Shown in pieces: positions 29,045 to 34,347 of a stretch of 64,000 bases of DNA (its first letter is position 1; each line of letters starts with the position of its first letter). The translations under genes were made by a program, and so were the position numbers. The stretch is from an uncultured Verrucomicrobiae bacterium (GTDB lineage: Bacteria; Verrucomicrobiota; Verrucomicrobiia; Limisphaerales; Palsa-1400): NCBI GenBank assembly GCA_963702845.1, contig OY969763.1, positions 1,568,001 through 1,632,000 on the forward strand, in the 5' to 3' direction. The notes below the pieces were generated by a model. It did not search any database. It saw only the letters and a list, made by a program, of their open reading frames with translations, and was not told the DNA's origin.

Positions 29045-29167
29045 GGCGAACAATTAGCTCAGCCACAGCCGCCGAAGCGCGAGGTGGCCGAAGCCGGTGA
29101 CAACAGAATACTCATTGCGATAGAAATGCCAAGTGCGGCGGCTGTTGGCTGCAGCGCATGGTTAGGC
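29045..29167 (-). other. attC site 1
   Basis: Minus strand: GCCTAAC-CATGC-GCTGCAGC...GCTGAGC-TAATT-GTTCGCC. Confidence 0.9.
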
Positions 29168-29505: not shown

Positions 29506-29596
29506 GCCTAACGAAATCAGCTCAGCCAGCCCGTGTCAACAAACGTGAACCGCGAAGCGGAATGGAGAGCGGCTTGGCTGCAGCGCATGGTTAGAG
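29506..29596 (-). other. attC site 2
   Basis: Minus strand: CTCTAAC-CATGC-GCTGCAGC...GCTGAGC-TGATTTC-GTTAGGC. Confidence 0.9.
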
Positions 29597-29710: not shown

Positions 29711-30164
29711 GGGTTCTAACGTAAAGGTCAGCGATCGGAGCCAGACGCCGCTGATGTTCGATTTCTCCCTGAGCGAATCGGCTGGCTCCGATTCGCTGCA
29801 CCGTTTGGTTCGGTGAAATTCCGTTCAATGGCGCGGCGCTTGGACTGAGCAACCTCAAACAACGCTCACGACTCGGCGATGGCTTCTGCTTCTGGGCGCT
29901 CTCAATCTGACGGTCAATCTCCTGGAGCTTCGTTTGTCCGATACTACGCCGGCGTGGGAGCCACTCCCTGGCGTCATGTGCCACCTTGGCCTCTAGCACC
30001 CGCCATCCCTTGTCGTCGTTTTTGCGCGGGATGCGCCAACGCCACTCAAGCTCCCAGAGGCGTCCTCCACACTGCGAACAACGGAGGTTCGTGTTCAAAC
30101 CGTAGGCTGCTTCCGCTCGACGGGAAGTTCGACAGGAAATGCAAATGTAGGTGCGACTGGACAT
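29697..30164 (-). CDS. Cassette-borne Zn-ribbon-like protein (frame reads through attC3; 3' end possibly frameshifted)
   Basis: CISC...CSQC, WRIPRKNDDKGW. Confidence 0.65.
   Translation of the reverse strand: MSSRTYICISCRTSRRAEAAYGLNTNLRCSQCGGRLWELEWRWRIPRKNDDKGWRVLEAKVAHDAREWLPRRRSIGQTKLQEIDRQIESAQKQKPSPSRERCLRLLSPSAAPLNGISPNQTVQRIGASRFAQGEIEHQRRLAPIADLYVRTHDII
29714..29814 (-). other. attC site 3
   Basis: Minus strand: ACCGAAC-CAAAC-GGTGCAGC...GCTGACC-TTTAC-GTTAGAA. Confidence 0.9.
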
Positions 30165-30178
30165 TCGCGCGCTATTTC

Positions 30179-30269
30179 ACCGAACGTGAAGCGCAGCCAC
30201 GCCGGGCCAGTGGCGCTGAAATGCAACCGTAACGCTCAGCCCGCGTTGGCTGACGCGACTGGGTTACGC
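30179..30269 (-). other. attC site 4
   Basis: Minus strand: GCGTAAC...GCTGCGC-TTCAC-GTTCGGT with imperfect dyad symmetry. Confidence 0.85.
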
Positions 30270-30272
30270 TGC

Positions 30273-30527
30273 TCATTTTGTTTGCTTCTCTCGCTGTCTC
30301 CGGCGGCGTGTCAATATTGTGCCCACAATCATCCAGACCGTGACCATGGCGGAAACGATGATCGCACCGCCCAAGTAATGCAAGGTGGGTGCTTGGTTTC
30401 CGTCGTAGTCGTGGATCGGGCCGATGCCAAAGGCAACTCGAACGACATACAACGCCCAAACGAACACAACGAACATCGCCCCAACCGTTGCGCGGAGCTT
30501 TGGTTGGTCTCTAAAGAAATCAGGCAT
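30273..30527 (-). CDS. Cassette-borne two-TM membrane protein (84 aa)
   Basis: ATG lies within the R' box GTTATGC; two hydrophobic helices and a basic tail. Confidence 0.7.
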   Translation of the reverse strand: MPDFFRDQPKLRATVGAMFVVFVWALYVVRVAFGIGPIHDYDGNQAPTLHYLGGAIIVSAMVTVWMIVGTILTRRRRQREKQTK

Positions 30528-30622
30528 AACGCCAGAACTCACACACGCCGGGTCGATAAGCGCTGTCCGCGAAGCGGAGCTGCGATGGCCATTCGGCGTT
30601 GTGTGCAGTGATTTTGTTAGGC
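30524..30622 (-). other. attC site 5
   Basis: Minus strand: GCCTAAC-AAAAT-CACTGCAC...GTGAGTTCTGGC-GTTATGC. Confidence 0.85.
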
Positions 30623-31000: not shown

Positions 31001-31093
31001 GCCGAACGCCCCAAGCTCAGCGACGGCGGCCACAAGTCGCGCCGATTGCAACCGCGACGGCCCGCCGACATTCGCTGCAGCGCATGGTTAGGC
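31001..31093 (-). other. attC site 6
   Basis: Minus strand: GCCTAAC-CATGC-GCTGCAGC...GCTGAGC-TTGGGGC-GTTCGGC. Confidence 0.92.
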
Positions 31094-31729
31094 CGCATTT
31101 TGTTTTCGTTGCAAAATCCTAAAACCCATTAAACCTGCTACCGCTAAAAAATAAATGCTCGCACTCGCAGGCTCCGGAACACTTGTTACCAGCCAACTCC
31201 CCACTCCTGGAAAACTGGTGTTAACACCATAAGTAAGCGCGTCCCCTGGAACTCCGCTAACGCGGTAAGTTGGAACACCAGATGCGTAGAAGAAATCCAA
31301 GGATGAAACTACTTGTCCGCCGGAGTACGAAGTTCCTGTAATGCCAATCGTTTGGGGATGACCATCCTGAGAGGACGTGGCTCCAACCAGAGAAATGAGC
31401 GACTGTATTGAGGGATCAGCCGCTGGATAATCGCCCGTGCCAGGGATTCCCGCTGATGTGTAAAGACCGAGAACTTCCTGAGCTGTGGCAAATCTAAACC
31501 CGTTAAAAATTCCTCCAGATTGGGTCCCGGCAATCACCTGCTGATATGACAAGCCTGCGCTCGCGGTGAGATCAAGCCAGCTAAGTCCGGTGGACGTGTC
31601 TGTCGTCACAGAGTTTAGCCCAAAGCTTGGATTGCTTGCCTGAATTAAGTTTGCATTTGCCGGAAGACATGACAGACAAAGCGAAATGATCGCAGCAAAA
31701 GCGACATTGTGGATGTTTTTCATCTTCAC
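31088..31729 (-). CDS. Cassette-borne PEP-CTERM sorting-domain protein
   Basis: Signal peptide; C-terminal VPEP + TM helix + QRK; stop inside the attC6 R'' box. Confidence 0.88.
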   Translation of the reverse strand: MKMKNIHNVAFAAIISLCLSCLPANANLIQASNPSFGLNSVTTDTSTGLSWLDLTASAGLSYQQVIAGTQSGGIFNGFRFATAQEVLGLYTSAGIPGTGDYPAADPSIQSLISLVGATSSQDGHPQTIGITGTSYSGGQVVSSLDFFYASGVPTYRVSGVPGDALTYGVNTSFPGVGSWLVTSVPEPASASIYFLAVAGLMGFRILQRKQNAA

Positions 31730-31771
31730 CTCTTGTTGGTTGTTTTATGTGTAAGCGGCCTAGACCATATG

Positions 31772-31790
31772 GCTTAACGAGAAAGTCAGA
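31772..31790 (-). other. attC site 7, R' fragment (left of the IS)
   Basis: Minus strand: TCTGAC-TTTCTC-GTTAAGC, resembling the attC3 end GCTGACC-TTTAC-GTTAGAA. Confidence 0.75.
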
Positions 31791-31907
31791 TGGGTGTTTG
31801 ATCTCGGTGTTACGCGGGTTATCGGCGTGTGCCGACCTATCCGCAATATGAGAGTCCCGACGGCGGGTCGGGGCTGATTCAGCATCAATGAAAGAAACCA
31901 AACACCC

Positions 31908-33089
31908 ATGAATAAAATCGTGCATTACCTCGGTCTGGACGTCCACAAAGAAACTATTGCCGTGGCCATCGCGCCGCAGGATACCACCGAGGTCCGTTCC
32001 TACGGCATCATCGGCGGAGCCCTTGAAGCCGTCGAAAAGCTCGTCAAAAAACTATCTGCACAAAACATTGAACTGCGTTTTGTTTACGAAGCGGGTCCCT
32101 GCGGCTTTGTCATTCATCGCTATCTTAAAAGCAAAGGCATCCAATGCGATGTGGTGTCGCCTTCGCTCATTCCCAAAAAGGCTTCCGACCGGGTGAAGAC
32201 TGATCGGCGTGATGCCGAGCAACTGGCCCGTCTTTATCGGGCGGGAGAACTGAGGGCCATCTACGTGCCTGATCAGGAGGATGAAGCTATCCGCGATTTG
32301 ATCCGGGCCCGCACTGCGGCGGTGTGTGACCAGCGCCAGGCCCGAAATCGTTTGAAAGGCTTTTTGTTGCGACTGGGTTTTCGTTACAGCGGCAAGACCA
32401 GTTGGAACGATGCGCACAAGCGTTATCTCTCCGGCTTGCTCATGCCGCAACCGGCGCAGCAAATCGTCTTTCAGGAATGCATTCATACGATCGACGACGC
32501 CAGCCAGCGACTGGAACGACTGACTCAAGCAGTGGAAAACTCTTTGTCGGGCTGGAAATGGGAACCGGTGGTGCGCGGGCTGATGAGCTTGCGTGGGGTG
32601 CAAGTGCTCAACGGGATGACTTTGGTGGCTGAGGCTGGGGACATGACCCGCTTTACTGAGCCGCGGCAGCTGATGAGTTTTTTTGGACTGACTTCCTGCG
32701 AGCACAGCAGCGGCGGAAAACGCAGCCAAGGTGGGATTACTAAATGCGGCAACACCCACTGCCGGCGCGTCCTGACCGAAGCGTCCTGGCATTACCGTCT
32801 CAAACCGCAGGTCAGCGAGGTCATGCAAAAATGACAGGAAAAACAAAGCAAAGAAGTCCGCTTGATCGCATGGAAAGCTCAACAGCGACTGCATAAACGG
32901 TTCCGCTTCCTATCGGTTCGTAAAAAGAGCGTCGTGGTGGTCACTGCCATTGCGCGTGAACTGACCGGCTTTGTCTGGGCCATCGCCTGCCAGATCAAAG
33001 CGCCGCAAAAACCAGCTGCGCCGGAAATTATCCGGACCTGCCGCGGCCGCGTTTACAAACTGAATCCAACCCGAACTTATAAAAAATAA
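31908..33089 (+). pseudogene. IS110-family DEDD transposase/recombinase with in-frame TGA at 32832-32834
   Basis: GLDVHK, YEAGPCGF, KTDRRDA, EHSSGG...GGITKCGN; the same frame continues after the stop (IAWKAQQRL...TAIAREL.GFVWAI). Confidence 0.9.
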
Positions 33090-33247
33090 CATTTAAGAAT
33101 GAAGTGGCACGAACCGATTATCAGCAAACCAACTGCTGATGAGCACGTGAGCCGAAGCGCTATCGCGCCAGCTCTCGCTACGCTGCCGCTGCGCTCACCC
33201 GGTCGAATCGCTGGGCAAAACCGAACAAATAAAAAAACTTTAACTTT

Positions 33248-33472
33248 GCAGTGGATTGATGAGTTGGCAGAGAGCAGCTCGGTTAGGCGAACCCTCGTGA
33301 GTGTTAAGAGGAAGTTCCTTGCGAACGAACCCTCGTGCCTAGAGAGAGGAAGCGCCGCGACTCGAACCGTGGTCAGGTCGATAAGTCAGGTCTTCAGACC
33401 CGATGAACTCACGCATATCAGCAGGATCAACCGTCGTTGATTGCTGCTTCTGCCAACTCAACAGTCCATTGC
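33248..33472 (+). ncRNA. Candidate bridge/seek-type RNA in the IS110 right end
   Basis: 33248-33278 and 33443-33472 form a ~30-bp stem with two G-U pairs, one mismatch and one bulge; location fits known IS110-family ncRNAs. Confidence 0.6.
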
Positions 33473-33483
33473 TCAATGTCAGA

Positions 33484-33564
33484 CGGTGAGTGGCGCCGGG
33501 CCACAGACGTCCGATATGCAAACAGAGCGCGCCACCGGCGTCCACTCCACTGCGCTCGTTAGGC
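33484..33564 (-). other. attC site 7, main body (right of the IS)
   Basis: Minus strand: GCCTAAC-GAGCG-CAGTGGAG-TGGACGCCGG...CCGGCGCCA-CTCACCG. Confidence 0.85.
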
Positions 33565-34107
33565 CAATGGTCCGCCTCTGTATCCAAAATACTCAAAACA
33601 ATTCGTCTCCTCTGAAGTCTCGACCTCATCGTCCTGAAATGCGTTCAGACGCTCATCGGGATTCTTCAACAATCTACGGGCAGCAACGACTTCGGGGTGT
33701 TGAAGAAATCGCTGTACCGCGGCGTGAACAAGCCGGTCAGCCTCCTCAGTAAACATGCCGAACTGCTGCGGCAGCCTATAAGCTCTCACTGGCATTAAGA
33801 AGCTCTTGAGAATCGCAGCATATAGCCTGTCTCGAACTGCTGTATCTCCCAGTTCCCCATGCTTTGCATAGGTCTTATCCAGCGCCGTCAAAAACTGTTT
33901 CAACGCGCTTCTGATAATCCGAGTCTTTTTATCGTAAGCAACGCGCTCCTTATCGCGTCGCTTCTTGAGAGGCTTTTCAGCAATCTCAATCGACAATTTC
34001 ATACTGAAAAGCAGTTTGAGTTTCTCATCGTCGGTCTTAGCCTTCGACAATCGCTCAAGCAATTCACCTAGTTCCGTTATGCGCTTCCTGAGGGGCTTAG
34101 CGCTCAT
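33559..34107 (-). CDS. First-cassette hypothetical protein (182 aa, helical)
   Basis: ATG 3 nt after GTTAGGC; TAA inside R'' of attC7. Confidence 0.8.
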   Translation of the reverse strand: MSAKPLRKRITELGELLERLSKAKTDDEKLKLLFSMKLSIEIAEKPLKKRRDKERVAYDKKTRIIRSALKQFLTALDKTYAKHGELGDTAVRDRLYAAILKSFLMPVRAYRLPQQFGMFTEEADRLVHAAVQRFLQHPEVVAARRLLKNPDERLNAFQDDEVETSEETNCFEYFGYRGGPLA

Positions 34108-34110
34108 GTG

Positions 34111-34129
34111 GCCTAACTATGATTATGCG
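34111..34129 (-). other. attI-like simple site at the head of the array
   Basis: Minus strand CGCATAAT-CATA-GTTAGGC: R box preceded by a close inverted L-like box, with no attC hairpin upstream. Confidence 0.55.
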
Positions 34130-34347
34130 ACGAGGTGTCGCGGTAATTTTGATATACGAACGGTTGGTTCATATCGGTTGAGGAGACTATTGTTCTGCTG
34201 CCGTTGCCGATCAAGCGCAACAAAACGCATCTCTTCGCCGACGTGATCGACCGCCTGCCGCACGAAAAAGTAAATACCACGGTAAGTGTCCGCGCTTGGT
34301 TAAGGATGTGGATATGTGTAGGACGTGATACCTGCTTCGAATGCAAA

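Follow-up and report, generated by a model that had tools for sequence, protein, structure and literature searches.

An insertion sequence within a gene-cassette array

We analysed a window of 64,000 nucleotides from the genome of an uncultured Verrucomicrobiae bacterium (assembly GCA_963702845.1, contig OY969763.1, positions 1,568,001 to 1,632,000). The source genome is assembled as a single contig (C1), and positions refer to the window unless preceded by C1 or a locus number. The window carries a gene-cassette array on its minus strand, with six intact attC sites (29045-29167, 29506-29596, 29714-29814, 30179-30269, 30524-30622 and 31001-31093) in which the spacer between L' and R' measures 5-7 nt. 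A seventh site, attC7, survives as a remnant on the same strand (33484-33564): it keeps R'' (33558-33564), L'', the central stem and L', and has lost the L'-R' spacer and the GTT/AAC triplet. An attC covariance model built from 18 uninterrupted sites of the source genome alone gives a match of 39 bits at 33467-33568. The remnant belongs to an upstream cassette gene of 182 aa (33559-34107, minus strand), and the downstream cassette contains a gene of 213 aa (31088-31729, minus strand) whose product has a C-terminal VPEP motif; neither protein has a Pfam match. We take the VPEP motif to be PEP-CTERM-like. In the source genome, which is 89.8% complete, no protein passes the TIGR02249 cut-off for integron integrases.

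Between the two cassette genes lies an IS110-group insertion sequence, hereafter copy A (31762-33483, plus strand). Its DEDD transposase/recombinase gene, of the YEAGPCG type found in ISSfr2, ISSso6 and ISEc45, spans 393 codons (31908-33089, plus strand) and runs antisense to the cassettes of the array. The product matches DEDD_Tnp_IS110 (PF01548) and Transposase_20 (PF02371), both above cut-off. The first-pass annotation, made from the letters of the window, had placed an IS110-family transposase within an attC array, and the two domains, the antisense orientation, the six intact sites and the 39-bit match bear this out. It did not mention that the gene is broken by a premature TGA at 32832-32834 (codon 309), the frame of copy A ending after codon 308. 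A second, distant IS110 family (∼27% identity) is present in six copies in the source genome, for example at L133:1016-2167.

Copies and ends of the element

The source genome contains two further full copies, B (C1:98459-96673; 1787 bp) and C (C1:2836284-2834488; 1797 bp). The three copies share their sequence from position 31762 on and occupy unrelated sites, and the true left junction of copy A is at 31761/31762. Because the copies share this sequence and the bases preceding 31762 differ, the fragment at 31772-31791, previously read as the end of an attC3-type site, is the element's own left end in all three. This left end of 146 nt (31762-31907, plus strand) is common to copies A, B and C and to the relatives described below. 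It is preceded by the left target flank GCGGCCT (31755-31761, plus strand), which is the RYYY part of an attC R' box on the bottom strand and the start of the downstream cassette; the sequence of this flank differs among the three copies.

On the right, copies B and C extend 65 nt past the point at which copy A meets attC7 and terminate in GCCATATC followed by AAC. A public contig that matches 33238-33483 with two differences also goes on into the complete right end instead of into attC7. Copy A retains 1722 of 1787 bp and lacks the terminal 65 nt on the right, and the extent of 1.7 kb originally assigned to the element has to be revised. Rejoining the flanks at GTCAGA does yield a spacer of 12 nt against 5-7 nt in the intact sites, as first described; the poor fit is explained by the loss from copy A of these 65 nt together with the AAC and the spacer of attC7. 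GTCAGA itself is present at both places (31786-31791 and 33478-33483) but is not the core of the junction. Copy C reads GCCGGA at the right-hand position, and the motif occurs in 5/88 left ends and 5/70 right ends of relatives. We reject GTCAGA as a core or target duplication, and the circle junction CTCAAT-GTCAGA-TGGGTG is not supported.

Sub-terminal inverted repeats, thought at first not to be clear, are found just inside the ends: in the source genome they form an 8-bp repeat, ATATGGCT/AGCCATAT, whose left arm lies at 31767-31774. A repeat of at least 6 bp is present in all 57 relatives for which both ends are available, and in 48 of these it consists of 6 bp running inward from offsets of 7 and 3. 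The non-coding sequence of the full copies amounts to 146 nt upstream of the transposase gene and ∼460 nt downstream, and the long downstream region is an IS1111-like feature.

Copies A and B differ at one position (33396) over the 1722 bases they share. Since both have the same stop codon and are one base apart, while the frame of copy C is open, a dead element was probably copied in trans, giving A and B. Copy C is inserted in a complete attC, copy A in attC7, and copy B beside only an attC-like L' arm.

Several further traces of integron-related sequence were seen in the genome. The head of the array (34110-34200) bears a short hairpin that resembles attC but has an atypical R'' side; it is also present beside copy C (C1 ∼2836500-2836560) and is matched by public contigs. 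Two stumps consist of the left end of a related element: stump D (C1:1159666-1159761; 86% identical), at the start of a cassette-like gene directly after GAGCCTA, and stump E (C1:1644564-1644647; 79% identical). Between two genes at C1:2292984-2293062 stands a single attC7-like site whose R' box is degenerate.

Phylogenetic position of the transposase

The protein combines a DEDD RuvC-like domain with a C-terminal Tnp domain, as expected of the IS110 family in the broad ISfinder sense, and the SG motif of the C-terminal domain reads GLTSCEHSS at residues 260-268. The intact protein of copy C is 52.6% identical to that of ISSfr2, 47.5% to ISSso6 and 46.8% to ISEc45 over ∼360 aa. Against IS1492, IS4321 and ISEc11 the alignments cover partial lengths at 22-29% identity, and no full-length kinship to IS1111-type transposases was found. 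A search for ISEc11 in 301 genomes of the class returned one weak match.

In a quick tree of 42 proteins the element falls in a clade with ISSfr2, ISSso6 and ISEc45 (SH-aLRT 95), and a long branch with a support of 99 parts it from the IS1111 proteins. The tree contained no member of the IS1111-attC group (ISKpn4, ISPa21, ISPst6, ISPa25), and the relative at locus L014, which has no intact frame, was left out. Elements targeting AAC were not resolved as one clade among the 42 proteins. Judged by full-length similarity and the common clade, the transposase belongs to the ISSfr2/ISSso6/ISEc45 branch and not to IS1111, with ISKpn4 and ISPa21 standing outside the tree comparison.

The target consensus matches the R' box of attC

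Relatives of the element were gathered from three sources: genome contigs, which gave 18 loci; 401 genomes of the class, of which 16 had a match, the source included; and metagenomes (the best 80 of 138). The named ones are mostly Verrucomicrobiota. Flanks were counted after leaving out the copies of the source genome and three duplicate loci. All 66 distinct right flanks begin with A; 59 of them begin with AAC and seven do not. Among 83 distinct left flanks, C occupies position -2 in 79 and T position -1 in 73. The resulting consensus, GCCT^AACG, corresponds to the R' box of attC read on the bottom strand. Integron integrases cross over at G^TT on the top strand of attC. The insertion lies 1-2 nt beyond this crossover, at GTT^RRRY of the top strand. 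The junction is fixed at T^AAC with at most one shared base, so that insertion is site-specific and makes no target duplication, as is usual in the IS110 family.

A heuristic attC score of 12 or more was reached by 24 of 56 long flanks compared with 2 of 1000 random genomic AAC sites. Scoring homologue flanks with the attC covariance model, as had been proposed, gave a divided answer: a match adjoins the junction at 34 of 62 loci and none at 28, among them copy B of the source genome. By eye, several of the loci missed by the model look like attC (L016, L019, L020) and others do not. In all 34 matches the R' end adjoins the junction and the orientation relative to the cassettes is antisense, as in the IS1111-attC group. 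Taken together, the flanks, the attC model, the protein identities and the tree support the existence of an attC-targeting IS110 lineage outside IS1111, as had been suggested from the window, the separation being drawn in a tree that included no IS1111-attC protein.

Two loci from one assembly, L011 and L023, contain different alleles of the element with the same right flank, a minimal site (AAC, 6 nt, GTTAGGC), and different left flanks. Shuffling of a cassette together with its element, strain variation or chimeric contigs could account for them.

A predicted guide RNA downstream of the transposase gene

The non-coding region of the right end contains a predicted bridge/seek RNA (33248-33472, plus strand). 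The consensus fold of an alignment of 26 sequences consists of a long outer stem around an internal loop. Two-sided changes were detected in 11 of 53 pairs, all in the outer stem, a number matched by none of 500 shuffles; in the inner helices that flank the guides no two-sided change was seen, and they have no covariation support. Rfam contains no match for the predicted RNA. Between the transposase stop and the predicted RNA, a GC-rich stretch (33140-33215) is conserved in close relatives.

Both sides of the internal loop appear to read the target. A putative right-target guide on its 5' side (33298-33306, plus strand) is complementary to T^AAC and the 5 nt that follow, and changes with the target across relatives. 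On the 3' side, a putative left-target guide (33335-33342, plus strand) contains GCCTA and matches the left-flank consensus; being almost invariant, it lends itself to no covariation test. Two other invariant stretches fit the joined ends and probably serve as donor guides: one candidate (33369-33378, plus strand) has complementarity to the beginning of the left end, and the other (33414-33422, plus strand) matches the end of the right end, absent in copy A, and the first bases of the left end. A structured RNA with guides is a feature of the IS110 family, and here the target guides are indicated by fold and covariation and the donor guides by sequence match.

We compared guide and target at target positions +4 to +8 in 50 distinct pairs, copies B and C of the source genome included. 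The pairs contain 145 matches, the mean after shuffling being 118.9, and none of 20,000 shuffles scores as high, a contrast that the relatedness of the elements causes the shuffle test to overstate. Of 42 positions at which a guide deviates from the consensus, the target agrees with its own guide at 22 and with the consensus at 8. Individual loci illustrate this by eye: L016, L017 and L022 carry a guide that fits G^AAC, the base at -1 being G in both of those with an available left flank, and the guide of L040 matches its own target over 9 nt. At L021 a different guide accompanies a non-attC site, guide and target having changed together. An exception is L044, where a guide of the AAC type is found at a different site.

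A scan of 31650-33650 returned no sigma-70-type promoter, and by eye no good second hexamer stands at canonical distance from the TTGACA of the full right end once the ends are joined at the predicted junction. The one RNA run consulted covers bits of the gene and is uninformative on the guide RNA.

The agreement of guides and targets also bears on how the site is recognised. Conceivably the lineage reads a short motif like GCCTAACG, its enrichment at attC being secondary and the attC structure playing no role. The guides would account for the target sequence without any structure, and the 28 junctions without a model match fit such a reading as well, to which we give somewhat less than an even chance. 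Against it, all 34 model matches lie at the R' end, though R'' has a similar GCCTAAC on the other strand; this restriction to R' suggests that the bases after AAC, or the structure, act as selector. Recognition of a short motif is compatible with the guide-directed insertion at attC that we favour, the difference being how the site is chosen.

Origin of the truncated right end of copy A

Among eight relative loci, L142 and L148 have intact attC7-like sites with a readable R' end, and both read AAC, 5 nt and L'. With the true ends of the element in place, only the AAC and the spacer of attC7 are missing at the window site, and a single deletion of ∼73 bp therefore explains the junction. Most likely this was an ordinary illegitimate deletion. 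A search for the empty allele, suggested as a check on the original reading, found none for this site, and no read across 33483/33484 was found (the best run contains 0.19 of the words). The closest attC7-like site of another genome, L142:1484-1500 (G413), has GCCATATC before its AAC with no element there, likely an 8-nt scar of a right end.

The recombinase itself might have made the loss by using an imperfect internal right-end motif (∼33474-33483) as a donor half-site in a half-match recombination. The stretch 33474-33483 matches a candidate donor guide at 6 of 8 positions, half-match recombination has been reported for IS621 (10.64898/2026.08.31.748434), and at L018 (2598-2735) a relative is truncated precisely at its own left-target guide, where it abuts the AAC of an attC. 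Such an event would require a native attC7 spacer ending in AGA, however, and the spacers of attC7-like sites end in CG (L142, L148, one site of the source genome and one public contig); moreover, no second copy with the same truncation was seen. We regard a loss made by the recombinase as unlikely. The join at L018 looks as if guide-coding DNA had been the target half-site.

An assembly error at the repeat formed by the nearly identical copies A and B (1 difference in 1722 bases) is an improbable source of the truncation: although no sequencing run containing the locus was found, the best again with 0.19 of the words, the genome is in a single contig, copies B and C were assembled with full ends, attC bases were lost besides those of the insertion sequence, and truncated relics are common (stumps D and E, L018). 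The original interpretation, in which a GTCAGA-bounded element joins halves of two attC sites after cassettes were lost through the insertion sequence, drew on the motif at both places and the 12-nt rejoin, and cassettes might in principle have gone with a deletion that began within the right end and reached attC7, but its argument rested on a left half that is insertion sequence in copies A, B, C and relatives, GTCAGA is not conserved and the corrected ends leave only AAC and ∼5 nt missing, which makes it very improbable.

Two other routes to the deletion are disfavoured. A microhomology deletion between two copies of GTCAGA, suggested by AAC GTCAGA at L008, is at odds with attC7-type spacers of 5 nt ending in CG. 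An integrase-mediated deletion would not fit a junction that lies off the AAC crossover, nor a genome with no integrase over cut-off at 89.8% completeness.

Relation to known attC-targeting elements

That IS1111 elements target attC is already known. The IS1111-attC group comprises ISKpn4, ISPst6, ISPa21 and ISPa25 (Tetu & Holmes 2008 and Post & Hall 2009, as cited by others) and is described as a monophyletic subset of IS1111 (PMC3001079). Like the present lineage, its members insert at a fixed position of attC, antisense to the cassettes, and have the guide RNA downstream of the transposase gene (PMC11187229, PMC3001079). They are described as inserting near the 5' end of attC (PMC3001079), whereas the present lineage uses the 3' R' box. 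The sub-terminal inverted repeats of IS1111 measure 7-17 bp (PMC11208160) and those here 6-8 bp. The transposases of ISKpn4 and ISPa25 are of the DLAK/MEACG type with IS1111-type motifs, as printed in the supplement of PMC11187229, and the table of Durrant places them in a cluster other than that of ISEc45 and ISSfr2 (PMC11208160). IS110-family members with a downstream non-coding region were noted by Siddiquee 2024 (PMC11187229).

Within its own branch, the element resembles ISSfr2 in having, by eye, a similar RNA scaffold downstream of the gene. The copies of ISSfr2 and ISSso6 that we examined differ from the present lineage in their guide sequences and in right flanks that by eye do not start with AAC. 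The openly accessible literature that we searched contained no report of attC targeting by the ISSfr2/ISSso6/ISEc45 branch, and no characterised guide RNA or target for this branch was found there.

The bridge-RNA elements of the IS621 type also have a DEDD recombinase and separate target and donor loops (PMC11208160). Supplementary file 5 of Durrant 2024 contains 11 occurrences of GCCTAACG, of which the 10 listed are all target rows resembling attC R', and the donors of the three rows checked are all unlike the ends of the present element (PMC11208160). The RNA of IS621 is located in the left end, in contrast to the position downstream of the gene seen here. The donors of those three rows are presumably of the IS621 type, to judge by their resemblance. 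Many GT-centred target rows of the same file resemble the top strand of attC (…TTGTTAG/TTGTTAT…) and have a single donor type in common (PMC11208160). They apparently represent a further attC-targeting lineage, unremarked in the main text, where attC occurs only in the reference list (PMC11208160). Group IIC-attC introns likewise enter the bottom strand of attC antisense to the cassettes (PMC3001079). They differ in being retroelements with an unrelated chemistry, and in that they part a gene from its attC and do not insert past the crossover.

Proposed mechanism and implications

We consider it very probable that this lineage, found across Verrucomicrobiae, inserts under the guidance of a bridge/seek RNA, encoded downstream of the transposase gene, whose target loop reads GCCT^AAC(G), and that copy A was damaged later. 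By analogy with IS621 and ISEc11, excision would yield a circle that joins the right end of the element to its left end. This circle junction would be read by the donor loop of the RNA and GCCT^AAC by the target loop, and the DEDD recombinase would place the circle into T^AAC, the two having a single base (A) in common as core. Since insertion falls 1-2 nt past the crossover, the GTT of the upstream attC is preserved and the element forms the 5' portion of the cassette that follows. Copy A would have entered attC7 in this way and then lost ∼73 bp, made up of 65 nt of the right end, the AAC and the 5-nt spacer. With a nonsense codon and without its right end copy A is dead; attC7 is now without its GTT, and the copy in the window is in itself ordinary debris.

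What the lineage offers is a natural bridge-RNA system from the ISSfr2/ISEc45 branch that can be read, with dozens of natural guide-target pairs, and an IS110-type protein combined with an IS1111-like architecture and an apparent core of one base. Because the crossover triplet and both arms of attC are spared, we tentatively suggest that the lineage may hitch-hike on cassettes, the integrase providing a second route of spreading. If this is true, the element would not block cassette shuffling. Together with the targets of the IS621 type and the IS1111-attC group, attC would then have been reached independently by at least three branches of RNA-guided recombinases through the rewriting of guides. 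Elements that target attC are usually assumed to freeze cassettes (PMC11616780). Insertion at R' may instead leave the cassettes mobile, which is a testable claim about integrons.
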